The notes under the pieces: generated by a model
What the model saw: the letters and a program-made list of their open reading frames with translations, nothing else
What the model was told of the DNA's origin: nothing
The model's database searches: none
Source: an uncultured Pseudomonadales bacterium
GTDB lineage: Bacteria > Patescibacteriota > Microgenomatia > UBA1400 > PJMF01
DNA length: 64,000 nt
Reading direction: 5' to 3'
NCBI GenBank assembly: GCA_964570365.1
Contig: CAZMXT010000001.1
Location: 73,440 to 137,439 of the forward strand
Position numbers and translations under genes: made by a program
Shown here: positions 13,658-49,539 of the stretch, in pieces
How the letters are laid out: the number at the start of each line of letters is the position of its first letter
How positions within the stretch are numbered: the first letter of the stretch is position 1

Positions 13658-13666
13658 AGAGACTCC

Positions 13667-14875: not shown

Positions 14876-16565
14876 TTATGATTTTTCTTCTAAACTGACT
14901 GATGCCACAGAGCGCTATTGCGATCAGAGTAAGTCCACTTGCTGAGTTCCCGATCAAACGCGGCCAAGTCCGTTGAGTGAAGCGTGTTTGAACTTGGTAC
15001 TGACCGGCTGGTAAAGTATATGCGAGCCTTCCTTTTATTTGTTCATTATTACTATAGCTCAGCTTGAGCCAACTCTGAACACCCACAGCTTTGACTCTTG
15101 TCTCCCAACCTGGGAAGTTCATAGTTGGCTCAGTTACTATTGAAGGCTCGGTTAACTGAAGTTCATAGTTACGATATGACCCCTTCCAGTTGTACACATT
15201 GATACTGCCTTTCCCCTCCAGTAAAGTAGGTGCTGGACTCCAGTCCGATATCTCGGTGTAGGTAAAGTTTTGAGGCAAGTTTTCGTTAGCTGTAGTTGTA
15301 CTTTGAGGAAAGTTATCATAACCAACAGACTCTTTATGAAAGTACGATACTGCCTCCACTCTAGTAAAAGTTAGGAGTTGAAGTAGTAATAGAATAACAA
15401 AGCAACTTTTTCCCCATTTTCCTAGTTGCTGATACACAAATGCAGCTAATGGAATCAAAAATACCACTAAGAATAAAGTTAACCGCCAAGGAAATTGTAT
15501 AAAATTAGCTAAGGGAACCAGCTGCCAAATCATTGCACTGAATTGAAGCTGCGCAACTAGAAGAATCCAAGCTATTCCTGTGCAAAAAAGCAGAGTTCTT
15601 TTACCATGCAGAGGAATTTTTTTCCAGATCTTAATTCCGATTACCTCAGTTGCTGCTACCAAAACAAAGAATTGGAGTAATCCAACGCTAAATGCTGCTG
15701 AGTCAATCCTCCCAGGATAAGAGAAACCAGACTTTAGTGGTGAAAAAAGGAGCTGTTTTAGAGTTGGGAAATGTTGCAAAAACCCTTGTGATATTCCCGC
15801 CCCATTAATCACTGTATATTTTTGCTCTAATAATGCTGGCAGCCAAAACCAAAGAGAAAGCAGACCTGCTAAGACAAGAACAATACTAAAATTACTCCAC
15901 ATCTTGGTTTTTTTTCCAAACCTCAACAACCCATAGGTGAACAGGAGCGGTGTCCCAAACAGAACAGTCACATTATGGGAAAGAAAAAATGCGGCTAAAA
16001 GGAAAACCAAAATAAGTTCAAACTTGAGACCTGGTGTCTTTGCCTTCTGAGCAATAGTGTCAATTCCAAGTAAGAGCCAAGGAAACAAGCTCAAAGCTAG
16101 TATCTCACCAATACTGCCACGGAAAAAAAATAACTGCAAAATATATGGGCTGGCAGCGAAGACTCCAATCCCAAAACGTCGGCTAGAAAGGTCAAATCCT
16201 AGCAGCTTTAACCAAAACCAAGCTCCAATCAAACCACTCACAATTGCTGTAGCAGCAAGTATTTTAAAAGTCAGCTCATACGAGACTTTGGCAAAAGAAA
16301 AAGGCAGTGACAGAATATTGGCTAACGGATAATTAAAGTTAAACACCGGATATCCGTAGTGATTCATAAGATTGGGAGCAAAACGAGGTGGAAACTGACC
16401 CTCACGCACCGCCGCCTTATAGTTCGCAAAACGAGCTAAGTGGTTCTCCCCATCGTGGGTAGTAGGAAAATCTGAGTGGAGAAAAACACGAGTAACAAAG
16501 AAAGCTAAAAATACAATCCAGCCAATAGTGGTGAGCATAGATTTAGCTAAAAGTTTTTTACGCAT
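14868..16565 (-). CDS. large polytopic membrane protein, GQFP-RW motif family (GT-C candidate; paralog of 32270 and 35399)
   Basis: N-terminal loop THDGENHLARFANYKAAVREGQFPPRFAPNLMNHYGYPVFNFNYPL. The same motif layout recurs in two other ORFs in the window. The membrane core is followed by a C-terminal domain of about 150 aa. Confidence 0.6.
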   Translation of the reverse strand: MRKKLLAKSMLTTIGWIVFLAFFVTRVFLHSDFPTTHDGENHLARFANYKAAVREGQFPPRFAPNLMNHYGYPVFNFNYPLANILSLPFSFAKVSYELTFKILAATAIVSGLIGAWFWLKLLGFDLSSRRFGIGVFAASPYILQLFFFRGSIGEILALSLFPWLLLGIDTIAQKAKTPGLKFELILVFLLAAFFLSHNVTVLFGTPLLFTYGLLRFGKKTKMWSNFSIVLVLAGLLSLWFWLPALLEQKYTVINGAGISQGFLQHFPTLKQLLFSPLKSGFSYPGRIDSAAFSVGLLQFFVLVAATEVIGIKIWKKIPLHGKRTLLFCTGIAWILLVAQLQFSAMIWQLVPLANFIQFPWRLTLFLVVFLIPLAAFVYQQLGKWGKSCFVILLLLQLLTFTRVEAVSYFHKESVGYDNFPQSTTTANENLPQNFTYTEISDWSPAPTLLEGKGSINVYNWKGSYRNYELQLTEPSIVTEPTMNFPGWETRVKAVGVQSWLKLSYSNNEQIKGRLAYTLPAGQYQVQTRFTQRTWPRLIGNSASGLTLIAIALCGISQFRRKIINA

Positions 16566-16571
16566 CTTGGT

Positions 16572-17660
16572 CTATTTGCTTGGAAAAAGCGAGTGATAAA
16601 CCTTAACTGTTTCTAGTGCGGTCTTTGCCCAACTGAACTCTTTACTCCATTTATAACCAGCTCTGACTCTTTCTTCTCTGCGAGTTTTCGACCAGCTCAG
16701 CACTTGTTTAATACCATTAGCTAATGACTCCGCATCATCTTCAACATACTCTGCCACTTCACCCCCTACTTCAACAAGTGACGAACTTCTGACTGCCACC
16801 ACGGGCGTGCGACACTGCATTGCTTCTAAAATTGGCAAGCCAAAACCTTCATAGAGTGATGGCTGGACATAGACTTGAGCACCAGCATAAACAGCAGCCA
16901 ATTCATTCGTAGCAGCAGCTGAAAGTTCAGTCAAGAAGTGAACTCTGTCAAGGACGTTACTCAGAGCTAGTTGAGTTTCAATGGCTTTCCATTCTGGAAT
17001 ATCTTGTGGAATAAAGTTTCGACCTACACATACTAAGTGAAGATGAGGCGGAAAGTACTTCATGGCCTTAATGAGTTGAGGAATATTCTTATTGTAATTA
17101 ATATCTCCCACATACAACACATACTCTTTGGGCAGTTGGTATTTCTTCATTGTCGTTAGAAGCACTTTTTCTTCAGGCTGTTGGAGCTCTGGATTAGCCG
17201 CTAAGTACACAACGTGAATCTTCTCCCTTCTGATATGTAAGTGTTTCACAATATCCTCTTTTGAACTCAACGAATCTGTGATAATCGCATCAGCTTTTCG
17301 TAGCGACAGCAACTGTCTAAAAAAGGTAAGCTTGCCTTTTTTTCCTGGAGGATACTGCTTAGGAAACTTCAAGGGGATTACATCATGAACTGTAACCACA
17401 CTTTTGGAACCTCTAAAAAATGGTAGAGTAGGAAAAAATAAATCAAAGTATGGGTAATGAACTAGGCTTTGCGATCCAGCTACCTTTGCTTTTAAAATCT
17501 TTTGAGATTTGCGCTCTGCAGAACTTTCTAACTGAATTACTTTCAAGTTATTTACTTGCTCTAGTTCTGCCGCTAAAAAACGCGTATACATGCCAACGCC
17601 TCTGCCGGAGTTTTCATTCACAAGCGGAGAAGTGTCAAGAAAGATGGTGATCTCGTTCAT
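16572..17660 (-). CDS. GT4 family glycosyltransferase (GT-B fold)
   Basis: The C-terminal signature YVQPSLYEGFGLPILEAMQCRTPVVAVRSS matches the EX7E region of GT4 enzymes. Confidence 0.85.
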   Translation of the reverse strand: MNEITIFLDTSPLVNENSGRGVGMYTRFLAAELEQVNNLKVIQLESSAERKSQKILKAKVAGSQSLVHYPYFDLFFPTLPFFRGSKSVVTVHDVIPLKFPKQYPPGKKGKLTFFRQLLSLRKADAIITDSLSSKEDIVKHLHIRREKIHVVYLAANPELQQPEEKVLLTTMKKYQLPKEYVLYVGDINYNKNIPQLIKAMKYFPPHLHLVCVGRNFIPQDIPEWKAIETQLALSNVLDRVHFLTELSAAATNELAAVYAGAQVYVQPSLYEGFGLPILEAMQCRTPVVAVRSSSLVEVGGEVAEYVEDDAESLANGIKQVLSWSKTRREERVRAGYKWSKEFSWAKTALETVKVYHSLFPSK

Positions 17661-18429
17661 AAATTTCCCATAACTTTAAGTACGCTACAGCATGATGCAA
17701 TCCACTAAAAATAGCAAAAACAAACCCCGCTGCTCCATCAAGTAAGCCTTTGTGCCGGAAAAAGATCATAAGAAAAGTAAAGACTGGCTTCCAAATCAAG
17801 AACTGAGCTGCCGTCAAAATATTCACCTTCGTACCAAGCTCTTTTAGTTGAGTACTTTTGAAGGTGGTATATGTGTTGAACTTGCGAAGGTACTCACTAA
17901 AGTTATGGTTACCATAATGAAGTAGGTGACCCTTTGCCCAAGCAACTTCCCCTTTTACTACCATTTGTTCATGCACGTCTTTCTGAGGAAGCTTGGCGAG
18001 TCCTTTTCGGTACAAACGAATTACCGCATCCGGATACTGACCTCCTTTAGAAAGAAACCTCCCTAAGAACCAGTTCTTCCGTTTAATCCACCACCCAGCT
18101 GGAAGGGCTGACTCAGATGAAGGTTTTTGAATCTCCTGATGAAGCACCTGAATGAATGCAGCCAATTCATCATCTACTACTTCGTCGGCATCTAACTGCA
18201 GAATCAAGTCGCCAGTTGCTAAGTCCATTGCTTGTTGCTTATTAATATGAAAGTTTGCTTTATTGGTGGTGGCCGTAACTTTAGCACCCAACTTTTCTGC
18301 CAACTCTACTGTTTTATCCTCAGACTCTCCGTCTACCACAATAATTTCATCTGCAAAACTTTTGACTGCGAGGAGACAGCGTGTAATATTTTTTTCTTCA
18401 TTGTGGGTAGCAAGGACGACTGAGATCAT
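17635..18429 (-). CDS. GT2 family glycosyltransferase
   Basis: It has MISVVLATHNEEKNITRCL...IIVVDGESEDKT...LDADE, a GT-A fold with DxD-like motifs. Confidence 0.8.
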   Translation of the reverse strand: MISVVLATHNEEKNITRCLLAVKSFADEIIVVDGESEDKTVELAEKLGAKVTATTNKANFHINKQQAMDLATGDLILQLDADEVVDDELAAFIQVLHQEIQKPSSESALPAGWWIKRKNWFLGRFLSKGGQYPDAVIRLYRKGLAKLPQKDVHEQMVVKGEVAWAKGHLLHYGNHNFSEYLRKFNTYTTFKSTQLKELGTKVNILTAAQFLIWKPVFTFLMIFFRHKGLLDGAAGFVFAIFSGLHHAVAYLKLWEIYERDHHLS

Positions 18430-18854
18430 AGTGACGGTAACGCTCCAAACTTACGAAGGGTTCTCTCTGTGCCTGTATTCAGATCATACTTCTGCAAATC
18501 ATCAGACTTTACCCAAGCAAAATCCACCCACTCATCATTAAGCTGAACACTTCCTTCAACACTCACATCAAAGTAGAGGTAAATTAAGTACTGTTCCTCT
18601 GTTGTCCCATCACGAAACTTTTTAAGTTTTTGATCGTCTGCAAAAAAAAGCGGTGAGAGTGTTTTTACATATAAAGCAGACTCTTCCCAAATCTCTCTTT
18701 TTAAAGCTTCCTCCACTGTTTCATTGTCTTCTACACCTCCACCAACTAAACCCCATTGTCCAGGAAAAACCCCATGGTCATTGGACATCTTACAGAGTAA
18801 GAACTCCCCTGCCTGATTTCTAATGACACCAACTGCAATTAAACGTCTGAGCAT
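18426..18854 (-). CDS. NUDIX hydrolase
   Basis: The Nudix box GGGVEDNETVEEALKREIWEES is present. At 142 aa it is the size of GDP-mannose mannosyl hydrolase-like Nudix enzymes found in sugar clusters. Confidence 0.8.
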   Translation of the reverse strand: MLRRLIAVGVIRNQAGEFLLCKMSNDHGVFPGQWGLVGGGVEDNETVEEALKREIWEESALYVKTLSPLFFADDQKLKKFRDGTTEEQYLIYLYFDVSVEGSVQLNDEWVDFAWVKSDDLQKYDLNTGTERTLRKFGALPSL

Positions 18855-18864
18855 AATTTTTTCT

Positions 18865-20478
18865 TTATAGAACCTTCACTTCCCAAGCATCCTGTTCTTT
18901 ATTCCACTCCACAATCACCGTTTCGTCCGGGAATCGGTCCGGAGTAGCTGCTATAAATCTATAGCGCCCCACCTTATAACCATACCTGAAACCTATTGTA
19001 TCAGGCAAGTGTCTTTGTATCGTAGTAAAGAAGGTTTCTGCAGACATTTTTTTGTACCACGCTGCGGAAATATATTGGTAGCCACTTTCGTCTACAATCG
19101 CAATTTTCCTGCCTTCAGCTTGAGTTTCTGCTTGGACCAAGGCAGCTGCAAACCCTGCCTTTAAGACCTTTGCACTTTGTTGGGGATAGGCAGTAAAGTA
19201 ATCGTTAAAGTAGCTCACAGCTTGGAAAAGCAGCACAACTGACACTAGTGCGGTTAACACATGCTTTTTAGTGAGAAACTGTAGCTGGGAATTTCTTTCT
19301 AGTACCCGCCAAGTCCAGCAAAGACCTTCTACTGCTATCAATACCCAGAAAAAGAAAAAGCCCAAACTCCGAGTGGCATGTGGTGCATCTACTGTTATAA
19401 CAGCTGGGAGGGGTGTAACCAATAAAAAGAAGAGCAGTAAGGCAGGAACCTTTGCTGAAATAGATTTCTTTTGTTGCAACGCTAGCAAGCATCTAGCCAC
19501 TGACCAGGTGATTCCCACCCAACCGAAAACATACACTATGGGTAGCAAGTGGCCATGAAAGGCAATTGTATGCCAAGGATGCCCACCACCTTCTCTAACT
19601 AAAAATTGAGCGCCAAATGTCGCTCGGTAGTTACTAACCACTTTTTGACCAAAGAAAAAAAACTTACTTCCGACTAACTTTTGGCTGAATCCACTTAGCT
19701 GACCTCTGTACTTGGTGTACTCCATCCAAGTGGATTCGTCAGAGAAAATAGTAATTCCACTCTTTTGTTGAGAGAGAGAGGCAAAAGAAACTAGTCCAAT
19801 TGCTAACACCAGTAGTAAGCCCGCGATAGGCAACCTCCATTTTGAGAACTGCCTATAACCTCGCCAGAAAATGATTGTTGGAACTAGAAAGGGTGCCAGT
19901 AATAGTGGTGTGTTGTAGACAAAAACTGAGCTCAAAATGAAAGTAATACCTAAAAAATCAATAATGAATCTTTTATTTGAGTGCTGTATTAGTAAGAGGA
20001 GTACGCCGGTTAAAAAAAGACTCAAAGCCACATTTGCTTCCCAAGCCATTCGAGAGTAGAAAAAGAATACTGGCTGAGTAGCTATCAGCACTGCTACCAG
20101 CAAACTGTATTTTTTTGAAAAGCCGAGAACTCTAAACGAAAACAGGTATCCAATTAACACCAAGGCTGTCCCAGCAACTACCGAAGGCAACCTCACTACT
20201 AAATCTGAAGTCCCAAAGACTGAAAAAAAGGCAACTAGGATAAATGGATAGCCCGGCAGTTTGTAGTCACCAAAAGACTTCAAGCTCAGCGGCCACGACA
20301 TCCCCCACTCATCCGTCCCTGTCCCTTTTAAAAGTAAGGCATTGTAGGCTAAGGCCGCTTCATCTCTATTTAAAGTAGCAGGTAAAGTAGACGCTCCCCA
20401 GATTCGAACTAAAAAAGCCATGCACAGAATGAGCGAAAGTAAAAATGAAGGAGGAAGTTTTTTAATCATATGTGACAA
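18865..20478 (-). CDS. GT-C glycosyltransferase, PMT/ArnT-like (GT39/GT83 family)
   Basis: Loop 1 reads LNRDEAALAYNALLLKGTGTDEWGMSWPLSLKSFGDYKLPGYPF, the DE...FGDYK(L)P pattern of ArnT/PMT_2. It is 537 aa and polytopic. Confidence 0.75.
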   Translation of the reverse strand: MSHMIKKLPPSFLLSLILCMAFLVRIWGASTLPATLNRDEAALAYNALLLKGTGTDEWGMSWPLSLKSFGDYKLPGYPFILVAFFSVFGTSDLVVRLPSVVAGTALVLIGYLFSFRVLGFSKKYSLLVAVLIATQPVFFFYSRMAWEANVALSLFLTGVLLLLIQHSNKRFIIDFLGITFILSSVFVYNTPLLLAPFLVPTIIFWRGYRQFSKWRLPIAGLLLVLAIGLVSFASLSQQKSGITIFSDESTWMEYTKYRGQLSGFSQKLVGSKFFFFGQKVVSNYRATFGAQFLVREGGGHPWHTIAFHGHLLPIVYVFGWVGITWSVARCLLALQQKKSISAKVPALLLFFLLVTPLPAVITVDAPHATRSLGFFFFWVLIAVEGLCWTWRVLERNSQLQFLTKKHVLTALVSVVLLFQAVSYFNDYFTAYPQQSAKVLKAGFAAALVQAETQAEGRKIAIVDESGYQYISAAWYKKMSAETFFTTIQRHLPDTIGFRYGYKVGRYRFIAATPDRFPDETVIVEWNKEQDAWEVKVL

Positions 20479-22177
20479 TTACAAATCTAGCTACGTTACC
20501 CACTCCATATACTTGATGTACAGAACTTGGTTGACGGGTACTTTTCTCAGATAACTCTTTAATCTCATCAGGTTTCCCAGCAACTAAGAAAGCAGACTCA
20601 GAGGTAAGTGTTTTCTGATCGGGAATTCCAAATGTAATATCAGGAATACTAGCTTGAAATTGATATGATTGGCTTGACCAGCTCTGGAACTCGTTTCCAG
20701 TATACGGCCCGTACGCCATTAGCCACAAATAAAACCTATCATCAAAACGAGAAATAAATACTTTTCGATTACTTTTTTGTTGAAAAATATCTTTAGCTAA
20801 ACTCTTGTAGCCATCCTGCCACTCTAGAGCTGACTCCCTGGGATAAATCTTAAAGTAATGAAAGGAAAAACTAAAAATAAAGCTCAGTACCAGTACGCAA
20901 AAAAGAGCTACCGGTAAAAATCCTAAAATTACCGTTCTGGAACCCTGTACATAAGAACTTAACCAGCTGAGCACTTTTACAGTTCCAATACCAATCAACA
21001 CCGATAGCGGCACTAGTGCATTTAAAGAACGAAGTGCATGGGGTGTTCCTTCAGGTACAGCAGCGGGTAGTAATGCTATAACCCACCATGTAATCAAGAA
21101 TAGGAGTACTCGCTTATTCTCAAACCAAAGACTAAAAACTCCTCCGACTAAAAAGGGCAGTAAAAATAAAGGAAAGAGGCCATGAATTCCAGTCCCATGC
21201 CGTAAGTTGGGATCTCCACTTAAAAATAAAAAATTCAGCGATAGGTGGTCACTGTAGTTCATTGCTAACTCTCTAGCTGTTAGCCAAGCTCGATGAAAAT
21301 ACACTCTATCAATAGCAGTATTACCTGCTAACTCGCGGTAAACATTGGATTGTAGGACTTCCTGATCATTTTTGAGAATTGAGTCAGTCCCCAACCTAAA
21401 CCGATTGCTGTCAGCGTAAAGCGGTGATTGGAACATTGGCACCAAACAGAGGAGGAAAAGTAGGACCGGTAGAATAATATGAGGCAGACTCTTCTTCAAG
21501 TTGTTGGCAAATCCCTGATGATTAAAGAGTGGCAGTAACAGAGTCGCTGCTACAAAGACAGCTAGCCAAACAAAGCGCACCGAGAAGTACGTGTAGGTTG
21601 CCACACTACCTAATACAGCTGAGAGAAAGAACCACCTTGGATTTTGACGAGCACATAGTAAAGATCCGACAGAAAGAGCTAACAAAAATTGTCCCAAATG
21701 ACCCTCAAAGGCCGTGCGAGAAAACATGATTGACCAGGGCGCAATCGTTATTACCAGCATCGTGGCCAAGGCGATCAGAGTGGCTCGAGAGACGAGTGTT
21801 CCGTGACGAACTTTTTGCCTCAGACCTAGGGTACTGAGTTGCCATGCAATCCAAGCTGCTGCAATAATTGTTCCTATGCCAGACAAACTACTCACTAGTC
21901 GCAAACTGAACTCACTCACTCCAACTAGCTTCGCTACTGCTGAAGCAAACCAAATATAAACGGGTAACTTGTAGTCCCCATAAGAAGGGTAAATCACCTG
22001 AAACCAAGGCCTGCCATGCATATCTTTGCCTGTCTGAGCCACTGACTTGACGTCCACCAGCATGGCTGCTTCATCCCAATAAAGAGAGCTCGGCACTTCG
22101 CCGAGTTTATACAGACGCAGAGTCAAGGCTAAGAACAAGATACACCCAACAATCAACCCCAGATACTTTCGCGGCAT
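20462..22177 (-). CDS. GT-C glycosyltransferase, PMT/ArnT-like (GT39/GT83 family)
   Basis: Loop 1 reads LYWDEAAMLVDVKSVAQTGKDMHGRPWFQVIYPSYGDYKLPVYIW. It is 571 aa with a polytopic domain followed by a C-terminal soluble domain. Confidence 0.8.
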   Translation of the reverse strand: MPRKYLGLIVGCILFLALTLRLYKLGEVPSSLYWDEAAMLVDVKSVAQTGKDMHGRPWFQVIYPSYGDYKLPVYIWFASAVAKLVGVSEFSLRLVSSLSGIGTIIAAAWIAWQLSTLGLRQKVRHGTLVSRATLIALATMLVITIAPWSIMFSRTAFEGHLGQFLLALSVGSLLCARQNPRWFFLSAVLGSVATYTYFSVRFVWLAVFVAATLLLPLFNHQGFANNLKKSLPHIILPVLLFLLCLVPMFQSPLYADSNRFRLGTDSILKNDQEVLQSNVYRELAGNTAIDRVYFHRAWLTARELAMNYSDHLSLNFLFLSGDPNLRHGTGIHGLFPLFLLPFLVGGVFSLWFENKRVLLFLITWWVIALLPAAVPEGTPHALRSLNALVPLSVLIGIGTVKVLSWLSSYVQGSRTVILGFLPVALFCVLVLSFIFSFSFHYFKIYPRESALEWQDGYKSLAKDIFQQKSNRKVFISRFDDRFYLWLMAYGPYTGNEFQSWSSQSYQFQASIPDITFGIPDQKTLTSESAFLVAGKPDEIKELSEKSTRQPSSVHQVYGVGNVARFVIVTYD

Positions 22178-22234
22178 TTATTGATCATAGCATTTCTCAT
22201 TGCGAGTGGGAAAAGAGACAGGTAAGATGATCTG

Positions 22235-23485
22235 ATGACTTCGTTCCGTCCTATTCATTTATTGATCGTGATTTACTTAATCTCCAGATTATTCATTTGG
22301 GTTTTTCGACCCCAAGCCTTTAGCGAAATCATTTACAGTTATATGCCTTATGCCCATCTCTGGGCCAGTGGCACCAAACCATACCTGGAGCAGTGGTACG
22401 AATATCCACCAGTGACAATTCCGTTGTTTTACATACCCCATATCATTGATCGAGAAACTCGTGAAACTCCTTTTCACTTGAACTACCTACAAAGTTATCG
22501 AGGTTTGCTATTGATTGTTGATCTACTCCTTTTTGGATTGATCTGGAAAACACTACAAAAGCAAAAAGTTGCCTTACCAATTTTTATTACTGCTGTACTC
22601 TATTACATTGGGGTTACCACAAAAGCTCACCACTTTCTGTATGACACCATGGACCTGACTTTTGCCGCTTCGCTCACTCTAGCAGCAGCCGCACCAGTGA
22701 TTTTATCTGCCAAAACTGCCAGCTTTTTTTCTTGGCTGGGCACTTTTTTGGCAATTGGCTTAAAGTACGTCAACGCCCCCCTAATACCGATCTATGCTTT
22801 GTTAGAGCGACAGAACTGGAAACGACTAGTGGTGTCTGGCTTTATTGCCTTTGCGTTAGTCTGGGCATTGCCACTCAGTTTGTTCCGATCTTCCTTGTCT
22901 GTCAGCTTGGTTTACCACGATATGCGCGGAATTCAAGTTGATAGTGCAGCAGCCATTCTCCTCAGAACTATTGACCAATTTACTCAGAGTGAGCGGATCA
23001 TCGAGATTTATAAGAATTATGAAGTTACTGGCCCGCTGACGGATCAAGCCAAGAGCGTAATGAAAGTTCTTTTTCCAGCTTCACTGCTTATTTACGTAGC
23101 TATCGCATGTTGGTTAGTGCTTAAGGTAACTCACAAACGCAGTCAGTTTCTCCGTATTCATCTCACTCTAGGGTATATCTTACTTTTTATGCTCACTGGA
23201 AAAGTGCTTTCGACCCCATTTCTCCTCTGGCATATTCCTTTACTCGCCATCTACCCTTTTACAAGCCTCAAGAGGCAACTGAGCTTTCTCGTCCCTTCGG
23301 CCATCATTATCTTTGTATCAATGACTCAAGTTTCCAATGATCTGATTGGTATTTTTCCTATTCCCTTAATTGTAGGATGGATTCGAACCCTCGCTTTTGG
23401 CTTTCTGTTTATTCAATGGCTCTGTCTGACTAGAGATGAACAAAGAGAAGCTCATTCTCCAGTTACTAGTGCAACTGATAAATAA
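22235..23485 (+). CDS. polytopic membrane protein, candidate GT-C (GT87/DUF2029-like)
   Basis: A hydrophobic 416-aa protein. Its loop motif YEYPPVTIPLFYIPH resembles the YPP-containing loop of GT87-like membrane glycosyltransferases. This is recalled from memory. Confidence 0.45.
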   Translation: MTSFRPIHLLIVIYLISRLFIWVFRPQAFSEIIYSYMPYAHLWASGTKPYLEQWYEYPPVTIPLFYIPHIIDRETRETPFHLNYLQSYRGLLLIVDLLLFGLIWKTLQKQKVALPIFITAVLYYIGVTTKAHHFLYDTMDLTFAASLTLAAAAPVILSAKTASFFSWLGTFLAIGLKYVNAPLIPIYALLERQNWKRLVVSGFIAFALVWALPLSLFRSSLSVSLVYHDMRGIQVDSAAAILLRTIDQFTQSERIIEIYKNYEVTGPLTDQAKSVMKVLFPASLLIYVAIACWLVLKVTHKRSQFLRIHLTLGYILLFMLTGKVLSTPFLLWHIPLLAIYPFTSLKRQLSFLVPSAIIIFVSMTQVSNDLIGIFPIPLIVGWIRTLAFGFLFIQWLCLTRDEQREAHSPVTSATDK

Positions 23486-25118
23486 CCCAGACCACTTTAC
23501 CTTGCAGGTCTCGTACTTCTGATACTTCCTGGGCAACCGAACCTTGTTGGGTAAGACGATTGAATTCTGTACGCGAAGATGCAATGATTCCCTTATTGCT
23601 ACTACTTAATGCATCCACAAACTCGATGTTCTGAAATTGTAGAAACTCACCTTGATCTTTTTTAGCCCACTCATTTTCACCCTGAACTAGGCTTGGGTCG
23701 GTCTTCGTGTAAAACCAGTAATACATTGCAGGACGACCTTGCTCGCGGGTAATAAAGACTGGCAGGTTTGGAGCGCTATGCTGCCTTTTCTTTACTTCAG
23801 CTACCATTTCTTTATACCCATATTGCCATTCAGAGGCATAGAGTTGTGGAAACACTAAGGAGTAAAACCTCCAGAATTGGCCGAATTGGATTAAGAAAAA
23901 AAGAGCTAGTGGAACTGTTAAGATTTCCGGACTTACTCGGGGCCACTTTTGTTTCAGCCACACTACTGAGTACATCACTCCAAAACTGAGGATTAACAAC
24001 AGAGCAGGCATCACTGGCAAAATGCGCAAAGCGTGGGGTGCTGCTTTGGTTAGACCAGCTGGAACAACTCCAATTAAAATCCAGAAAAAAAGAAATGCGA
24101 CTTTCCGATCGCGCATCTTGAATAAATAAAAAATACCTAGCGACAAAAACACCGCATCTAGTAAATAAAATTGACCCACTATTTGAACTGAGTGACGCGG
24201 ATTCTGGTCACCTTGGATAAAAAGAAAAGTTGGTGAAAAATGCTTAAAGTAATTTTCAATAAAGCCGCGACCGTAAAAAAAGTAACGATGGTATAGCAAG
24301 CGGGCGATGTGTGTATCCCCAGCTGCCTCACGATAGGTATTACTCTGCTCTACAAAAATTGGATCACTAAAGAGATTTGTTTCTTTAAAGCGTTGTTGTT
24401 GAATTGGATCCCGGAAACTTAGTAACAGCGGAAGAATGAGTAAAATAAAGAAAATACCCATAGGAAAGATTTTTTTTAAGTTCGCCTTCCAGTCACCTTC
24501 TAATAACCACAGTCCCAATAACCCCATCGCTAAAAATGGAGCGATTAAACGAGTAGCATGATAAGCGTACATGGAGAGTGCTAACAACCCAAAACTAATA
24601 AAGTAGGTTCTTCTGCTCGCTCCTGCTTTCAATCCTAAATAAACTCCCCAAGTAACTAAACAGGTAGCTAAGTTTACCTCCCAAGCAGCGCGCGAGAACT
24701 GAATCGCCCAGGGAGAAATGCTGACTACAAACATCGTTAAGAGTTGAACAATGTCTGGTGAAAAACGAAGCTTTTTAGCGAATACACGAGCGATTAATCC
24801 TGTCCCGATTACTATCAGCAGTCCAGCTATAGCACTCGGAAATCGCACCGCCTCCTCATTTAATCCAAGTAAAGCCACTGCCGGAACTACCACATAAAAG
24901 TACAATGCTGGTTTATAATCACCAAATGACTCAAATGCTGAAATGGGCCAATTATGTCCATGATGATCTTTACCCGTTTTTAAGATTGAGTAAGCATCGT
25001 AACCTAAAGCTACCTCTTCCCAATAAAGAGCCGGGGGGGAACTTGATATGTTATAAAAACGAGTGAATACAGCCAGACCTAAAATAGTAATGAATCCCAG
25101 CAAAAAGATTTTTTTCAT
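23466..25118 (-). CDS. GT-C glycosyltransferase, PMT/ArnT-like (variant EE motif)
   Basis: Loop 1 reads LYWEEVALGYDAYSILKTGKDHHGHNWPISAFESFGDYKPALYFY. It is a paralog of 20462 and 25125, with EE in place of DE. Confidence 0.75.
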   Translation of the reverse strand: MKKIFLLGFITILGLAVFTRFYNISSSPPALYWEEVALGYDAYSILKTGKDHHGHNWPISAFESFGDYKPALYFYVVVPAVALLGLNEEAVRFPSAIAGLLIVIGTGLIARVFAKKLRFSPDIVQLLTMFVVSISPWAIQFSRAAWEVNLATCLVTWGVYLGLKAGASRRTYFISFGLLALSMYAYHATRLIAPFLAMGLLGLWLLEGDWKANLKKIFPMGIFFILLILPLLLSFRDPIQQQRFKETNLFSDPIFVEQSNTYREAAGDTHIARLLYHRYFFYGRGFIENYFKHFSPTFLFIQGDQNPRHSVQIVGQFYLLDAVFLSLGIFYLFKMRDRKVAFLFFWILIGVVPAGLTKAAPHALRILPVMPALLLILSFGVMYSVVWLKQKWPRVSPEILTVPLALFFLIQFGQFWRFYSLVFPQLYASEWQYGYKEMVAEVKKRQHSAPNLPVFITREQGRPAMYYWFYTKTDPSLVQGENEWAKKDQGEFLQFQNIEFVDALSSSNKGIIASSRTEFNRLTQQGSVAQEVSEVRDLQGKVVWVIYQLH

Positions 25119-25124
25119 GCTTGT

Positions 25125-26777
25125 TTAGTATGTCACCTCATTTGGTGTCCTAGTAACTGTAAATCGAACTTTTCCGTCTGTACCCCTCACAACTGCCATT
25201 GCTTTTTCAGCTGGAATTTCACTCGGAGTGGCAATGATTAAAACGTTTTTCCGACCTAAATCCCCTTCATTAATGCTGCGACTAAACTCATACTTAACCA
25301 ACGAACCCCCGTGGTACCAAATCGGATTTGTTTTCCGAGAGAAAAGTGCAAAGATATAAGGTTGTTGATAAAAATCTGTAAAGAGAATTCTTTCAACCTC
25401 TGGCTCATACTGCTTGGCATACTCCATTACTTCTAAGTACCCATCGAGAAAGTCTACACTCACTTCCCGTTGATAGCTGCCATAGTAGCGGTGTAAGTAG
25501 CTGAGCGAAAAGAGACAGTGTAAAAGCAGCCAAGTACCTACAACTGACTTAACCAGTAATTCTTTTTCTGACTTCGTTCCATTAACTCGCTGATTTAATG
25601 AAAGTGGCTGCAGTAACTTCCAAAGTGAGTCTGCGCCTGCCACAGCTAAAAGCAGGAATCCTGGCAAAGCTAGTAGTGCACGATTACTATGTGGAATATC
25701 TCGGCCAATAGCTGCTGGCAATAAGCCAATAAGAATCCAACCCACTGCAATTAACCAGAGTTGCTTTTCATCTGCGATGACCGAAATTTTTTTACGCAGA
25801 AATATAGGAGAGAGGACTCCCGCTACAACCAGCAAGAAAGTTGTTGGCAACAAGACTCCCCAATGACCATCACCGTGACGCAAAGAATTTGTCCATCCAA
25901 AACTCAAAAAAGCTGGCGAGATATGTGCCGAAAAATGGTAGATAAATGCTTCTAATTTTTCCACTGGACTCAGTGGTAATGTAAAAATGGTACTCTGCCA
26001 GAACCTATCAGCTCCGTGACCAAATAGTGAATCTTGAATGAGTGGTAAGAGACCAATGCTGGTTAGTACTCCCACGCAGAGCAGACTTTTGCGCTCAATC
26101 CAAAATACTTTTCTCTTTAAAAATATGAACAGTAGTACTAAAAGAGGCACCACAATTTTAGTACTGTGATAACTATATAAAGCAGCTGCTAAAAAAGTAC
26201 TAGTTGCACCAATATTAAAAAAGCGCTGCCATGCTTTAACTACCTGATTTAATCTAAGTAAGAAAACCAGGGACCAAATCAAAAAGCAGAGAGCAATCCC
26301 ACTTTCGAAACCAATTCGAGAAAAATGAATATGCCACGGAGAGAGGGCAATTAATAATCCTGAGAGTAATGAAAGTGAAGCCGCCGAGAGAAAAACATTC
26401 TCCTCCTTATTTACTACCGACTTGCGTTCTAACAACTGGTAGGTAAGCAAAATCATCCCTCCAACCGCTGCAACCCCAGCCAGTGCAAAAGGTAATCTCA
26501 CTGCCCAGAGGTTCATTCCAAATACAACAGTGAAAAAACCATTTAGATAGATTGGTAACGGCGCTTTGTAGTCGCCAAAAGAACGAAATGAAGTAGGCAA
26601 TCGATTCAACCACTCATCACGGCGCGTGGTCCAGACAGCATACCCATTGTAACCAATTGCAGCTTCATCCCAGCTCATACCATGTGGAACTTCTCCAATT
26701 TTGTAGAGACGTAAAACTGTGGCCAAAATCAAGATTAAGCCCACAAGAATCAGCCATCGTTTAGAAAGCAGATTCAT
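25125..26777 (-). CDS. GT-C glycosyltransferase, PMT/ArnT-like (GT39/GT83 family)
   Basis: Loop 1 reads MSWDEAAIGYNGYAVWTTRRDEWLNRLPTSFRSFGDYKAPLPIY. The start is placed at the internal Met (MNLLSKRW), where the ATG at 26775-26777 forms an ATGA overlap with the stop of the upstream GT2 gene. The longer track ORF running to 26855 is probably an artefact. Confidence 0.75.
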   Translation of the reverse strand: MNLLSKRWLILVGLILILATVLRLYKIGEVPHGMSWDEAAIGYNGYAVWTTRRDEWLNRLPTSFRSFGDYKAPLPIYLNGFFTVVFGMNLWAVRLPFALAGVAAVGGMILLTYQLLERKSVVNKEENVFLSAASLSLLSGLLIALSPWHIHFSRIGFESGIALCFLIWSLVFLLRLNQVVKAWQRFFNIGATSTFLAAALYSYHSTKIVVPLLVLLFIFLKRKVFWIERKSLLCVGVLTSIGLLPLIQDSLFGHGADRFWQSTIFTLPLSPVEKLEAFIYHFSAHISPAFLSFGWTNSLRHGDGHWGVLLPTTFLLVVAGVLSPIFLRKKISVIADEKQLWLIAVGWILIGLLPAAIGRDIPHSNRALLALPGFLLLAVAGADSLWKLLQPLSLNQRVNGTKSEKELLVKSVVGTWLLLHCLFSLSYLHRYYGSYQREVSVDFLDGYLEVMEYAKQYEPEVERILFTDFYQQPYIFALFSRKTNPIWYHGGSLVKYEFSRSINEGDLGRKNVLIIATPSEIPAEKAMAVVRGTDGKVRFTVTRTPNEVTY

Positions 26778-27697
26778 ACTTGATCCCTTTTCCACCACCA
26801 GTATGGCTGCCATAAAATAAAAAGCATTTTTTGAGTCAAACTTCCATTTCTCCAAGTAAAGACACGGGCATTGCGCCAGCTCATTTGAGTAATTCTCTGC
26901 TCACCAAAAACCTCCGCGTTAGTCGTTTCATGATAATGTTTCACTCTAGCCTGATTCTCAAAGAGAACTTGCCAACCTTTTTTCCTGGCTCTAAAAGATA
27001 AATCTACGTCTTCCCAATAGGCTGGGTAGTAAACTGGGTCAAACCCTTTTAGCTCTAACCACTTCTGTTTATCAAAGATGCCACTCCCCCCGCTCACCCA
27101 GGCCGTAGGGCCGGATGCAAACTCTGTGGCTCGTGCATGGATGAAAAGTCCTCTCTCAAACCACAACGAATTTTTGCCTCCCACCACCTCTTCTTCTCCT
27201 TCAAGCGTTTGCTCTTTTTCTAGACAGCCCACCGCAAACACTGCTGAGTTATTAAAATGAGGCAGAAGATACTTGAGAATATCGGCAGCTGGCTGAACGT
27301 CAGTATTAATCAAAAAAACTAGTTCATGTTTTGCTTGCTCTACAGCCCGATTACAGGTTGCCGCAAAGCGAAGATTCTGTCGGTTTTTTATCAAAGTAAT
27401 TGTTACACTTTTATTTGGATGAGTTAACTCAGTTCGCATCATCTCAAACTCTGAGGAAGAAGATTTTTGAGTATTGTCCGCTTGAGCATCGGAGAAGAAC
27501 TGCTGTTTTAACCACTCGCAGCTATTGTCTGAACTGGCATCGTCCATAATGACAATTTCATCCCCACTTCGGAGCATGGCAATTACCGAGGCTAAGTTAT
27601 CTGCCAGTAACGCCTGACCATTAAAGTTTGGAATAATAGCAGAGACATTACGACCACCATAAACTGGGTCGTTCGCAAAAGAAGAAATCGAAGTCAT
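26774..27697 (-). CDS. GT2 family glycosyltransferase
   Basis: It has VSAIIPNFNGQALL...IVIMDDASSDNS...NTDV and a C-terminal YWEDVDLSFRARKKGW region typical of GT2 enzymes. Confidence 0.8.
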   Translation of the reverse strand: MTSISSFANDPVYGGRNVSAIIPNFNGQALLADNLASVIAMLRSGDEIVIMDDASSDNSCEWLKQQFFSDAQADNTQKSSSSEFEMMRTELTHPNKSVTITLIKNRQNLRFAATCNRAVEQAKHELVFLINTDVQPAADILKYLLPHFNNSAVFAVGCLEKEQTLEGEEEVVGGKNSLWFERGLFIHARATEFASGPTAWVSGGSGIFDKQKWLELKGFDPVYYPAYWEDVDLSFRARKKGWQVLFENQARVKHYHETTNAEVFGEQRITQMSWRNARVFTWRNGSLTQKMLFILWQPYWWWKRDQV

Positions 27698-27704
27698 AAT
27701 GCTA

Positions 27705-28802
27705 TTACCTTTTTATCATTTGTTGCAAGGTCTTTTCAAAGCGATCTTGCGAGAACTGCCTTACTTGCGCTCTAGCCATTTCTCTAAGCGATGTACAAAG
27801 TTGTGTGTCCGTAATTAATTTTGTGGTTAACTCCAAACATTCATTTTCTGTCTGCCATAAATATGCAGTGAACTCAGCGCCTACTACCTCAGTTTGACCA
27901 CCCTTACCTACCACGACTGGGATGCAACCGCTAGCCATTGCTTCTCCTGTACTAATTCCAAAGTGCTCTACTTTTTCAGGCGCCTCAGCTTCATTTACCT
28001 CAAACCCAGCCGCGTGCCAATAAATACTCGCTTTAGCATACCATTCCAAGAGTTGACTACGCGCCACATCGTGCAGAAAAGTAATTGGCAAGTCTTTTGC
28101 AAGTTGATAAAGCTGACTCACATACTCTTGATCTTCTATCCCACCAATCAAAACTAGCCTCCAATCTGCCATCAGCTCCGGGTTAGACTGCAACATCTTC
28201 TGAAAGATTTTTATCAAAAGATCTTGCCTTTTTGCATGTGTATGTTGAAAAAAACGCCCCACACTTAAAATCACTTTTTGTTTTTTTGGAGCATGCTGGA
28301 AACAATCCTCCTCTATCACAGGATAGTGAACAAACGGAACAGAAGTCTGCCAAGCTTTTTCAACTACGTTTTGAGTAAACTGTGAGTTCGCATTTTTAAC
28401 AGACCAATTTTTGAGCTTTAATCTTTCCAAAACTGAGGTTTTACGGTTGGTGAATGGAATCTGGATGTGTAAAACATTATTCTTTGCTGCACTAAAAAAT
28501 AAACTGCCGTCAGTGACGTAGTAGAGCAAGTCATACTTGCGAGTCCAATCTAGCTTCCTAAAAAAAGAAGTCTGAGTGCCTAACGGGCTAGCAATAAACC
28601 CAACTACATCAAGTGAAGAGCCTAAGAAGCGACTGTAGTTCTGGCGATATTGAGCCACTTGGTCAGAGGTCAGTGGGTCAGTGGCAGAGATGGCTACTTC
28701 AACTTGGTGTGAGTTGCCCAAAGCCTGTGCGACTTTAAATAAATATCTTTCGCCGCCACCAAAGTGTTTGGGAATATATGGCGAGTATAAACAAACCCTC
28801 AT
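27705..28802 (-). CDS. GT-B fold glycosyltransferase (GT4-like)
   Basis: The C-terminal domain contains EHFGISTGEAMASGCIPVVVGKGG, a GT4/GT1-like nucleotide-sugar binding region. It is 365 aa. Confidence 0.7.
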   Translation of the reverse strand: MRVCLYSPYIPKHFGGGERYLFKVAQALGNSHQVEVAISATDPLTSDQVAQYRQNYSRFLGSSLDVVGFIASPLGTQTSFFRKLDWTRKYDLLYYVTDGSLFFSAAKNNVLHIQIPFTNRKTSVLERLKLKNWSVKNANSQFTQNVVEKAWQTSVPFVHYPVIEEDCFQHAPKKQKVILSVGRFFQHTHAKRQDLLIKIFQKMLQSNPELMADWRLVLIGGIEDQEYVSQLYQLAKDLPITFLHDVARSQLLEWYAKASIYWHAAGFEVNEAEAPEKVEHFGISTGEAMASGCIPVVVGKGGQTEVVGAEFTAYLWQTENECLELTTKLITDTQLCTSLREMARAQVRQFSQDRFEKTLQQMIKR

Positions 28803-29680
28803 GTCACCTCTTCGTCTTTTTTGAGTTCTTTCTTCTCAACAGCAAGCACAGGTGATAAGTCTTCAGGTTTGACACTTTTCCATTGGTTATTAATTTCTAA
28901 CTCTACCCGTTGATACTTCTCGGCTAACGACGGTTTCTGTTGTAATTCCCAAACTTGGATGTAAACCAAAATTCTATTTATTGCCTGCACTAGCGCCTCA
29001 ATCAGACCCTCTAAACCATCCTGGTAGCCTTTTTTGAGAACGGCGCGTCGAAAGAACTCCATGCTCCCTTTTCGTAGCAGCGTCATAAAAGAAACTGGCG
29101 CAACACTTGATTCATACAAAAGTCTAGCTTCGATGGGGGTCCAACTCGCACTCTTGAGTAAGCCATCTACCGTATTTCGGTGGGTCAGATGTACAAGCGA
29201 ACTATGCAGCTGTACTGATTCACCAGTAAAAACTGGACTCTCATGAATATCACCTTGCCACTTCTCTAGGGCACTCAATCTAAATACTCGGGTAATAAAC
29301 TCACTTTGCCAGCCACCGGATTGAAAGACTTTTCCATACATCATGTTCTGTCGATGGAAAACCAAGGCATTTGCGGTACTGGTCTCAGTTTGGACCAGAA
29401 TTTCTTTAGCGAGTCGTGGAGTCACTCGTTCATCAGCATCAATGTAAAAAACCCACTCAGAACTGGCAGCCTCTTTGCCAATATTTCTCTTCTCTGAAAA
29501 AGAGTGAGTCTGTGAGGCAATTACTTTCGCTCCAGCTCGCTCTGCTATCCCAACAGTTTGATCTTCAGAGTCTGAGTCCACCACGATAATCTCGCTGCAC
29601 CATTGCAGTGCTTCCAAGCAATTCGCGAGCATGAGCTCTTCGTTTTTGGTGATGATGATGGCTGAGATGCTAGGTCGCAT
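28799..29680 (-). CDS. GT2 family glycosyltransferase
   Basis: It has MRPSISAIIITKNEELMLANCLE...IIVVDSDSEDQT...IDADE and is a paralog of 17635-18429. Confidence 0.8.
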   Translation of the reverse strand: MRPSISAIIITKNEELMLANCLEALQWCSEIIVVDSDSEDQTVGIAERAGAKVIASQTHSFSEKRNIGKEAASSEWVFYIDADERVTPRLAKEILVQTETSTANALVFHRQNMMYGKVFQSGGWQSEFITRVFRLSALEKWQGDIHESPVFTGESVQLHSSLVHLTHRNTVDGLLKSASWTPIEARLLYESSVAPVSFMTLLRKGSMEFFRRAVLKKGYQDGLEGLIEALVQAINRILVYIQVWELQQKPSLAEKYQRVELEINNQWKSVKPEDLSPVLAVEKKELKKDEEVT

Positions 29681-29687
29681 GGTATAG

Positions 29688-30692
29688 CTAGATGATTGTC
29701 TGCTTACCCATTCTACCTAAAAGAAAATCAATTGTCGCCCGTCGTTCCGTTGCGTCTCCTAGAACTAGGAAGCGCAGAGCTAAGCGAAAAATATTTGCCT
29801 GGAAGAAGAAGATCTCCGGAACTGCTTTCCAGGCAGGTTTGGGAATTTTTTTGGTTTTTGTTGCAAGAGGGTTGTGCATTTTCTGCAATTCTTGCATAGA
29901 GTAGGAGTATCTTAAGAAAAAGTAAAATCTATTTCGAGTTTGATAGTATCTATTGAGCTCAGAGCCTGCTCCACCTGAGGAACTGGCGTTGGCATGCCAA
30001 ACTTTGGCATCTGGCGCATAAAGAACCTTAAATCCAGCTTGTCGAACTCGGATACTCCAATCCACATCCTCTAAGTAGAGGAAGTACTTTCCCTCAAGTA
30101 CTCCTACTTTTTCGATGACTGAGTAGGGCATGAGCACACAGCAGCCGGTAGCAAAATCTGTTTCTTGAGCTTGATCAAAGTGGCCGCGATCTAGTTCATC
30201 CACTCCCCGATGAAACGCATCCAAGTTTGCCCAGTCAATACTTCCCCCTGCATACCACAAGACTTTTCCTTTTTGCGATGGGGTATAGCTAGCATGGTGG
30301 TACTCGTTACCTGGGGCAAAGTAGATTTTGGGAGTAATCATCCCAACTTTTTCGCTTGACTCAGCGCAGGCGATCAGCTTAGTAAGAAACTCTTCATCTT
30401 GGGTTGTGTCATTGTTTAAAATCAAGATATAATCCGGCTTCTTTTCTCGAGCTACATACTCAATTCCTAAGTTGTTACCATCAGTAAACCCTAAGTTGGT
30501 ATCACTTCTGACAATCACGGTATTTTTAGGCAGCTGTTTCTGAGGAATGATCAGCGCGTCTTTAGAGCCATTATCAACTACCACTGTTGAGACGGTGTAA
30601 CTCTTTCTCTTTATTTTACGCAGTGAATCCAAGCACGCCCGAGTGTCTTGATCGTTATTGTAGTGAACAATGATAATAGCAACGTGAACCAT
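29688..30692 (-). CDS. GT2 family glycosyltransferase
   Basis: It has VAIIIVHYNNDQDTRACLDSL...VVVDNGSKD...ILNNDT...YLEDVDWSIR, a classic GT2 layout. Confidence 0.85.
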   Translation of the reverse strand: MVHVAIIIVHYNNDQDTRACLDSLRKIKRKSYTVSTVVVDNGSKDALIIPQKQLPKNTVIVRSDTNLGFTDGNNLGIEYVAREKKPDYILILNNDTTQDEEFLTKLIACAESSEKVGMITPKIYFAPGNEYHHASYTPSQKGKVLWYAGGSIDWANLDAFHRGVDELDRGHFDQAQETDFATGCCVLMPYSVIEKVGVLEGKYFLYLEDVDWSIRVRQAGFKVLYAPDAKVWHANASSSGGAGSELNRYYQTRNRFYFFLRYSYSMQELQKMHNPLATKTKKIPKPAWKAVPEIFFFQANIFRLALRFLVLGDATERRATIDFLLGRMGKQTII

Positions 30693-30724
30693 GATTGATT
30701 ATTGTACCGCACTTCTGAGGTGCT

Positions 30725-45964: not shown

Positions 45965-45981
45965 TCTAGAGTTAACCTTAT

Positions 45982-47523: not shown

Positions 47524-47532
47524 TTCTTTTGT

Positions 47533-48309: not shown

Positions 48310-48311
48310 AG

Positions 48312-49532: not shown

Positions 49533-49539
49533 TCAAATA

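Follow-up and report, generated by a model that had tools for sequence, protein, structure and literature searches.

A 64-kb window of contig CAZMXT010000001.1 from an uncultured bacterium of the Patescibacteria (64,000 nucleotides, to which all coordinates below refer) carries an array of four paralogous membrane proteins, here named A, B, C, and D. By predicted structure, we found these proteins to be glycosyltransferases of the C-type (GT-C) fold, with the PMT_2/ArnT group as their nearest kin in sequence. We consider it fairly likely that A to D are GT-C enzymes of a Patescibacteria-specific PMT_2/ArnT-like branch, that the four diverged from one another long ago, with each one conserved in its own right and probably all of them active, and that they decorate a wall glycopolymer. 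They form a new, poorly annotated branch of a known and ordinary kind of enzyme, and their arrangement is unusually rich and conserved.

Four homologous proteins of the GT-C fold

An earlier note on this DNA had described an array of four minus-strand open reading frames (ORFs), interrupted only by a divergent gene, as paralogs. The four frames are indeed present (Table 1), with the ATG at 26777 as the likely start of D (the mechanically called ORF extends to a TTG at 26855) and the ATG at 20469 as the likelier start of A, in agreement with the 534 aa of the Joint Genome Institute (JGI) gene call. The only gene between the paralogs lies on the plus strand and encodes a protein of 416 aa (X416). 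Pairwise BLASTP comparisons of A to D gave 25-30% identity over nearly the full length with E-values of 1.7e-14 to 4.8e-62, so their likeness reflects true homology and not chance. The four-way alignment contains 42 invariant columns, including E40, G70-D71-Y72-K73, S142-R143, E147, and P366-H367..R370 (A numbering). Because the same five-gene arrangement occurs on five independently assembled JGI metagenome contigs, the array is not an assembly artefact.

To place the family, we used sequence profiles and a structure model. Paralog A scores 29.4 bits against Pfam PMT_2 (PF13231; gathering cut-off 26.1), and precomputed PF13231 matches exist for many orthologs of A and a minority of those of C. 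No match to Pfam PMT (PF02366), PMT_4TMC, or MIR was reported for A to D in the Pfam scan; PF02366 is present in a few distant homologs. A profile of the four paralogs matched 496 proteins, the best of which come from Patescibacteria and Pacebacteria and are named 'glycosyltransferase family 39', 'ArnT-like', or 'phospholipid carrier-dependent glycosyltransferase', and 115 of the 120 top family-profile matches are closest to A (37-51% identity). An exhaustive profile search returned 6,725 cluster representatives (50% identity) at E≤1e-30. When searched against the PDB, the profile of the four paralogs alone found no match, and a 41-sequence profile found a single one, the ArnT of Cupriavidus metallidurans (5EZM, E 3.7e-4), in a local rather than full-length alignment that covers transmembrane (TM) helices TM2-TM7 (profile positions 69-233). 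Alignment of the family to ArnT by hhalign gave a probability of 76-81%.

An AlphaFold (AF2) model of C, built from a 57-sequence alignment, reached a pLDDT of 95.1 and a pTM of 0.94. Foldseek with this model returned ArnT as the top match (E 1.6e-7), followed by AglB, PglB, STT3, ALG9/12, Pmt4, AftA, Pmt1/2, and Emb. It is because of this confident model and these matches that we call A to D GT-C-fold glycosyltransferases; they are polytopic within the range of 8-13 TM helices, and the predicted structure matches solved GT-C enzymes. The model and hydropathy together predict 11 TM helices, a count that holds approximately for each of the four proteins, with the N-terminus inside and TM1 at residues 2-21. 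The first external loop of the model holds a helix (33-48), a hairpin (61-70), and a hydrophobic helix (72-84), and outside the membrane there are also a large loop 4 (residues 235-320) and a C-terminal α/β domain of ~120 residues. That the four proteins could be oligosaccharyltransferases (OSTs) of the PglB/AglB/STT3 type (GT66), which transfer a preassembled glycan en bloc, seems very improbable, given that the WWD, W[WY]DxG, and DxD motifs are absent from all four sequences, that the C-terminal domain has only ~120 residues, and that the sequence kinship is to PMT_2/ArnT, whose members use monophosphate donors. The earlier label 'PMT/ArnT-like' was apt in that the sequences are nearest to PMT_2/ArnT, and does not hold if taken as strict membership of ArnT (GT83) or PMT (GT39).

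The intervening protein X416 is also a GT-C-fold protein and not a gene unrelated to the array, which brings the count of GT-C-fold genes to five where the earlier note had counted four. It has ~10 TM helices, falls into the ALG3/PIG-M/ALG6/PimE fold class, and has no Pfam or NCBIfam match. We found 106 homologs at 28-61% identity, all named 'hypothetical protein' and none with a Pfam domain, and the residues E56, D72, D137, and D140 are invariant in this family. Catalysis by X416 is putative; PIG-U is a non-catalytic relative.

Conserved residues on the outer face

GT-C enzymes are marked by a conserved acidic residue or a DE, DxD, or DD motif in their first external loop, ahead of its first helix (PMC12331936, PMC7801869), a placement described for 'most C-type glycosyltransferases' (PMC12331936). 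All four proteins have such a motif, and the strings reported for this loop in the earlier note were all found in the translations: NRDEAAL..FGDYKLP in A, YWDEAAM..YGDYKLP in B, YWEEVAL..FGDYKPA in C, and SWDEAAI..FGDYKAP in D. At its N-terminal end, the first loop helix carries the acidic pair (E34-E35 in C, D39-E40 in A), 10-13 residues past TM1. The second acid of the pair is invariant, and the first is D, or E in the group of C orthologs (orthogroup C).

Throughout the family, the Lys of the GDYK motif (K73 in A, K69 in C) is invariant, and both HMMER and HH-suite pair it with chain residue 88 of 5EZM. The chain numbering of 5EZM is the literature numbering plus 3, as checked on an ArnT-ArnT alignment, so this Lys corresponds to ArnT K85, an alignment-based equivalence that we regard as solid. 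In ArnT, K85 contacts the carrier phosphate (PMC7801869). The acidic pair is likewise a candidate equivalent of ArnT D55/E56, the residues that correspond to D77/E78 of Pmt1 (PMC7801869). Low-stringency hhalign with an A-centred profile placed D39-E40 co-linear with D55-E56 at low confidence, and the family profile puts its DE on the DE of 'WVDEFS' in another PMT_2 protein of the window (6991-8550). Since a C-centred profile mis-registers the N-terminal loop against ArnT in hhalign, we base this low-confidence equivalence on the A-centred alignment, the bridge through 6991-8550, and the secondary structure of the model.

Further family-invariant residues (C numbering) form R143-x3-E147 at the TM3/TM4 turn in loop 2, comparable to the Rx4-6D loop-2 motif, and P361-H362-x-x-R365 in loop 5, resembling the donor-phosphate-binding Arg of that loop in OSTs, TMTCs, and the PMT of Mycobacterium tuberculosis (MtPMT). 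Together with the acidic pair and the GDYK Lys, these residues sit on the outer face of the protein. The positional homology of the motifs to the ArnT/PMT loop, on which the earlier note had made its proposal depend, thus holds, firmly for the Lys and more weakly, with the help of the model, for the acidic pair. Its description of diversified catalytic-loop motifs applies to the flanking residues, which do differ; the catalytic residues themselves are conserved save for one conservative D-to-E change.

A genuine ArnT function, the addition of 4-amino-4-deoxy-L-arabinose to lipid A, would agree with ArnT being the sole PDB sequence match and the top Foldseek match, with the 'ArnT-like' names that JGI gives to homologs, and with a UDP-glucose dehydrogenase gene in the window. 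We nevertheless hold this function to be extremely improbable. The structure-based identity to C. metallidurans ArnT (GT83; 5EZM/5F15) is only ~12%, there is no significant full-length similarity to characterised ArnT, and the family has GDYK where ArnT has FEKPP, although the Lys equivalent to K85 at the end of loop 1 is shared. The ArnT Zn ligands E84, H265, and H267 have no evident counterpart in the family's list of conserved residues. Of the partner genes, ArnA, ArnB, and ArnD were not found among ~40 scanned ORFs of the window, and the ArnC model reached 62 bits against a cut-off of 529. In addition, the window encodes a LytR-CpsA-Psr (LCP) ligase, and four conserved paralogs, compared with the one enzyme of the ArnT system, would be unexpected for a single lipid A modification. 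The envelope of Patescibacteria is Gram-positive-like, without lipopolysaccharide, and lipid A is presumably absent here.

A conserved glutamate in paralog C

In paralog C, E34 takes the position of the usual catalytic Asp, so that the acidic pair reads EE. This feature, which had been noticed in one copy, proved to be a conserved signature of orthogroup C: EE is found in 229 of the 272 sequences of the C-family alignment, in 114/120 C orthologs, and in 108/140 further cluster representatives, and more than 100 distinct 50%-identity clusters carry it. By comparison, 116 of the 120 top family-profile matches, nearly all closest to A, have DE. Across the C-family sets examined, E35, D51, D67, K69, R143, E147, H362, and R365 are essentially invariant. 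In a neighbour-joining tree, the clade with EE lies within those with DE, which indicates that EE is the derived state. About nine DE sequences carry C-type residues at nearly every position that otherwise parts the EE and DE groups. No compensatory site strictly co-varying with D34E was found in the C-family alignment at thresholds of 85%/15%; positions 37, 41, 52, 146, 247, 277, and 279 co-vary partially.

In MtPMT, the corresponding D74E mutant is almost inactive (PMC12331936), whereas Glu is conserved here in orthogroup C, with DE in A, B, and D. DPY19 C-mannosyltransferases, on the other hand, naturally use Glu71 at this loop-1 catalytic position; E71D keeps ~80% of the activity, one human paralog has Asp, and Glu and Asp can largely replace each other in these enzymes (PMC10154233). 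Because EE is conserved across orthogroup C while the other active-site-type residues are invariant, Glu at this position is apparently a conserved, functional, and tolerated variant of the catalytic acid and not a sign of decay.

An ancient, lineage-wide gene order

To determine how old the array is, we used C to scan one genome per species and classified all ORFs of the 32 loci recovered. The order GT2s-GT4-GT2-D-C-(X416)-B-A-GT2-GT4-membrane protein-PIG-V-like-epimerase (GT2 and GT4, glycosyltransferase families 2 and 4) recurs in many Pacebacteria-type metagenome-assembled genomes (MAGs; loci L006, L008-L012, L014, L017, L028). A neighbour-joining tree of 123 family members, computed without support values, gives each paralog of the window a separate clade in which every locus is represented once (A in 11 loci, B in 14, C in 16, and D in 14), and each clade has its own loop-1 signature: NRDEAAL / FGDYKLP for A, YWDExA[MI] / YGDYKLP for B, YWEE[VA]AL / FGD[WY]KP[SAT] for C, and [TS]WDEAAI / FGD[YF]KAP for D. 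Since each paralog has its own single-member-per-locus clade and signature and synteny is conserved, the alignments and tree indicate that the duplications are ancient, that the array is lineage-wide, and that every copy has been retained. The duplication and divergence proposed in the earlier note are thus borne out as far as true, diverged paralogs are concerned, and not as a local expansion.

The tandem layout and the motif differences might also be read as recent, redundant, or antigenic-variation duplicates, with the EE copy drifting towards a pseudogene. This is hardly credible, as the paralogs are 25-30% identical to one another while the orthologs of each are 35-50% identical and stand in the same order in many MAGs; furthermore, EE prevails in the C family with the other active-site-type residues invariant.

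In Gottesman-, Chisholm-, and Woesebacteria, we observed four to eight tandem paralogs per locus (L019, L021, L025-L027, L029, L030, L033). Some of these tandem paralogs have an altered loop 1 (such as FDDYKAP and FNDYKPP) or loop 2 (SRL for SRE).

We then screened for columns that are at least 80% conserved within each of the four orthogroups. Such columns are identical in all four orthogroups in 22 cases and group-specific in 10, and the group-specific ones lie in loop 1 (33, 34, 41, 53, 58, 65, 70; C numbering) and loop 4 (243, 250, 308). None was found among the 257 TM or cytoplasmic columns. Loops 1 and 4 build the donor and acceptor cavities in ArnT-type enzymes (PMC7801869). Divergence confined to external loops would fit diverged substrate recognition around an unchanged catalytic core, such as the different donor or acceptor specificities suggested in the earlier note, and is compatible with it rather than proof of it.

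The genes of the array are closely packed. The start of D overlaps the stop of the upstream GT2 gene (26774-27697) as ATGA, D and C are separated by 6 nt, and A (from the ATG at 20469) shares 8 nt with the 3' end of B, suggesting that D-C and B-A behave as translationally coupled pairs. In three MAGs, the homolog of this GT2 is fused with D into one ORF of 829-842 aa (L006 7494-9983, L011 7482-9980, L018 7477-10005); fusions in related MAGs, if they are not frameshift artefacts, tie the fused genes to one pathway. C and X416 are convergent, with 3' ends that overlap by 20 nt, and the divergent starts of B and X416 are separated by 57 nt (22178-22234). Upstream of B there is a weak sigma-70-like site on the minus strand (TTCCCA-17-TATGAT with TG, 22212-22184), which is a hint only. 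Given these divergent starts, convergent ends, and the weak site, D-C and B-A may be separate transcription units. In the region 18300-27900, neither promoter-like sites (14, with 16.2 expected) nor terminator-like sites (15, compared with 9.3 ± 3.4) were clearly above the shuffled expectation.

The adjacency of D-C and of B-A is near universal across the loci, whereas the C-B junction varies. This pattern, with the coupling-type gene spacing, raises the possibility that D with C and B with A are obligate hetero-oligomers, like Pmt1-Pmt2 or EmbA-EmbB, in which one partner may be mainly structural or acceptor-binding. We regard this as unlikely, though it could be combined with the glycopolymer role proposed above: operon adjacency is equally expected for consecutive steps of a pathway, and all four proteins keep every conserved active-site-type residue, so none of them looks like a pseudo-enzyme.

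Envelope-glycan context and possible acceptors

The window consists almost wholly of envelope-glycan genes. RmlB and Gmd scored above their NCBIfam cut-offs, and RmlC-like and RmlD-like genes accompany them and the UDP-glucose dehydrogenase gene. The GT2 fused to a GtrA/DPMS transmembrane domain at 44792 has sub-threshold NCBIfam matches to ArnC, dolichyl-phosphate hexose transferase, and PpgS; it is a candidate polyprenyl-phosphate-sugar synthase and possible flippase, which we link to the array by inference. A membrane-linked GT2, GtrA- and Wzx-type flippases, GT-C proteins, and a wall-polymer pathway are therefore all found in the window, their link to A to D again being inferred. This context (rhamnose/6-deoxyhexose genes, LCP ligase, flippases, and the GT2-GtrA fusion) suggests glycosylation of the envelope outside the cytoplasm, with polyprenyl-phosphate sugars as donors. 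The indirect signs of a polyprenyl-linked donor are the Lys aligned with ArnT K85, the conserved Arg of loop 5, and this fusion.

Protein O-glycosylation is a serious rival. Here, A to D would be PMT-like O-glycosyltransferases that use polyprenyl-phosphate sugars to modify Ser/Thr residues, each in other target proteins (secreted, pilus, or S-layer). We judge this rather unlikely. The Pfam PMT, PMT_4TMC, and MIR domains of GT39 PMTs (yeast Pmt1/2/4, MtPMT) were not reported for A to D, and the surroundings are of the polysaccharide type, with an LCP ligase, Wzx flippases, rhamnose/6-deoxyhexose genes, and many GT2/GT4 genes. No obvious Ser/Thr/Pro-rich acceptor protein was seen near the array. 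Moreover, the change that nearly kills MtPMT is the norm in orthogroup C. A true ArnT, an OST, and redundant duplication were effectively excluded.

Several points weigh against the decoration of a wall glycopolymer by four active enzymes. B, C, and D have no Pfam match at E≤0.01 and no meaningful NCBIfam match, and the identity to ArnT is as low as noted above. By predicted fold, A to D are no closer to ArnT than to ALG12 or Pmt4, so the fold cannot separate glycan, lipid, and protein acceptors. The acidic pair aligns weakly with ArnT D55/E56 and is mis-registered by the C-centred profile. Given the loss of activity of MtPMT D74E, EE could signal altered chemistry. Nothing specific connects A to D with the candidate polyprenyl-phosphate-sugar synthase, which is encoded ~18 kb from them, and every functional step that we ascribe to these proteins is drawn from homology and context.

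A proposed pathway and its known counterparts

Despite these points, we favour the decoration of a wall glycopolymer and propose the following pathway. A GT2 on the inner face, for example the GT2-GtrA fusion, would make a polyprenyl-phosphate monosaccharide, which would be flipped and then bound with its phosphate gripped by Lys and Arg residues. The first acidic residue of the pair would activate a hydroxyl of the acceptor, and the sugar would be transferred with inversion onto the acceptor outside the membrane. The most likely acceptor is a wall glycopolymer that contains rhamnose or 6-deoxyhexose and that the LCP enzyme would join to peptidoglycan. Each orthogroup would add a different sugar or linkage, and the embedded ALG3/PimE-like X416 would act in the same pathway.

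Compared by description, a close parallel is with the multi-component systems of Gram-positive bacteria (GtlB, GttB, GacL, CsdD/CsdF, GtsC, YkcB), whose PMT_2-type GT-Cs move single sugars from C55-polyprenyl-phosphate (C55-P) sugars onto lipoteichoic acid, wall teichoic acid, and rhamnose-rich wall polysaccharides (PMC8035078). A monoderm-type envelope, PMT_2-like GT-Cs, GT2s, GtrA- and Wzx-type flippases, rhamnose-polysaccharide genes, and an LCP ligase are common to both, and the transfer of a single sugar from a C55-P-sugar onto an external wall polymer is the chemistry that they would be expected to share. Unlike these systems, which usually have one GT2 and one GT-C, the array has four (five) GT-Cs together, and the candidate C55-P-sugar synthase is distant. 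It also resembles the mycobacterial sets (embC-embA-embB, AftA-D, PimE, MptA), whose GT-C paralogs, some of them in tandem, are each responsible for a separate linkage of the wall glycan, formed outside the membrane with polyprenyl-phosphate sugars. Mixed GT-C classes (X416 resembles PimE, and the protein at 48312 is weakly MptA-like) and LCP-type attachment to peptidoglycan are further likenesses. A more far-reaching proposal, which we put forward tentatively and think unlikely, is that the syntenic block (GT2s, GT4, GT2-D, C, X416, B, A, two polytopic proteins) could be an extracytoplasmic assembly line for a novel envelope polymer of Microgenomates-type bacteria of the Candidate Phyla Radiation (CPR), built largely outside the membrane. 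With up to ~16 GT-C-like proteins in the window, it would follow a logic like that of mycobacterial arabinogalactan/LAM synthesis, with one linkage per orthogroup and with C and the X416 family doing chemistry for which characterised bacterial systems offer no example.

A life attached to host cells is assumed for CPR/Patescibacteria, whose genomes are typically small. A literature search turned up nothing specific on GT-C or ArnT-like arrays in this group. In the lineage studied here, at least five adjacent GT-C enzymes are kept as a fixed set, each under strong purifying selection; that such a set is kept in typically small genomes suggests that externally made surface glycans probably play a central part in the biology of the lineage. 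Three of the four paralogs and the entire X416 family lack a Pfam match. Assigning fold and motifs would help to annotate a family that comprises more than 6,700 clusters (50% identity), and the conserved Glu at the usual catalytic Asp site offers a test case for the tolerance of GT-C active sites. Our findings do not overturn the current understanding of GT-C enzymes, and their relevance lies mainly in CPR envelope biology and annotation.

Other genes of the window and related loci

Table 1. Position and assignment of the array, its loop-1 cores, and neighbouring envelope-glycan genes in the 64-kb window.
Feature	Position	Strand	Remarks
Polysacc_synt (Wzx-type) flippases	8547-9746, 33922-35442
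GalE-like epimerase	12737-13657	-	Downstream syntenic block (12737-18854)
PIG-V-like membrane glycosyltransferase	13667-14875	-	Downstream syntenic block
565-aa multi-TM protein, no Pfam match	14868-16565	-	Two window paralogs match PTPS_related/DUF6541
GT4	16572-17660	-	Downstream syntenic block
GT2	17635-18429	-	Downstream syntenic block
NudI-like NUDIX	18426-18854	-	NCBIfam NudI, 149 bits (cut-off 95); between A and next GT2
Paralog A, GT-C glycosyltransferase	18865-20478	-	537 aa from TTG; 534 aa from ATG 20469
Loop-1 core of A, D39-E40 to K73	20260-20364	-	Alignment to ArnT
Paralog B, GT-C glycosyltransferase	20462-22177	-	571 aa
Loop-1 core of B, D35-E36 to K70	21968-22075	-	Four-way alignment, BLASTP
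X416, GT-C-fold protein	22235-23485	+	Catalysis putative
Paralog C, GT-C glycosyltransferase, EE variant	23466-25118	-	550 aa
Loop-1 core of C, E34-E35 to K69	24912-25019	-	AF2 model, alignment to ArnT
Paralog D, GT-C glycosyltransferase	25125-26777	-	550 aa from ATG 26777; mechanical ORF 25125-26855 from TTG
Loop-1 core of D, D63-E64 to K97 (TTG-ORF numbering)	26565-26669	-	Four-way alignment, BLASTP
GT2, translationally coupled to D	26774-27697	-	Pfam GT2; ATGA overlap
GT4	27705-28802	-	Upstream syntenic block (27705-31666), order conserved in related loci
Three GT2 genes	28799-29680, 29688-30692, 30725-31666	-	Upstream syntenic block
LCP glycopolymer-to-peptidoglycan ligase	37120-38190	+	Marks wall-glycopolymer biosynthesis region
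GT2 fused to GtrA/DPMS transmembrane domain	44792-45964	+	Pfam Glycos_transf_2 and GtrA_DPMS_TM

The order of the downstream block is conserved in seven of the related loci (L006, L010-L012, L014, L017, L028). Its NUDIX protein might have a role in nucleotide-sugar or polyprenyl-diphosphate turnover. Other fusions observed in related MAGs join the 14868-like and PIG-V-like genes (L012 16796-19681, 961 aa), the 35399-like gene and a Wzx-type flippase (L009 1216-4551, 1111 aa), and, in two MAGs, GT4 and GT2 (L010 4229-6397, L012 6142-8298).

The window also encodes a second paralog family of polytopic proteins of 565-574 aa with 24-28% identity, at 14868-16565 (-), 32270-33994 (+), and 35399-37096 (-). 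The proteins at 32270 and 35399 are those that match PTPS_related/DUF6541, and the one at 14868 has an 'HDGENH' motif after TM1. These three proteins are probably another glycosyltransferase-like family of the cluster.

Besides the PMT_2 protein at 6991, further PMT_2/PMT-type proteins lie at 45982 and 49540. The latter two belong to a plus-strand sub-cluster (44792-51093) in which GT2 and GT-C genes alternate: the GT2-GtrA/DPMS fusion at 44792, a PMT_2-like gene at 45982, GT2 at 47533, the weakly MptA-like gene at 48312, and a Pfam PMT gene at 49540. The product of 48312 is a membrane protein with 'HDVFNY', and the sub-cluster as a whole resembles the classical GT2/GT-C pairs of three-component glycosylation systems.

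Three large membrane proteins without a Pfam match, at 3083-6625 (+), 1391-3049 (-), and 11292-12740 (+), carry acidic motifs just past their first TM helix (GHDAGFRLD in the 1180-aa protein, FEQDEWMG, and YFNDMGRD). They are possibly further GT-C-like enzymes, which would bring the total in the window to ~16.

Finally, many public MAG records that contain this Patescibacteria-type block (L007-L010, L012, L016, L017, L020-L022, L025, L028; P0132, P0299) are titled 'uncultured Pseudomonadales', 'Gammaproteobacteria', 'Methylococcaceae', or 'Vitreimonas'; probably either these labels are wrong or the bins are contaminated.

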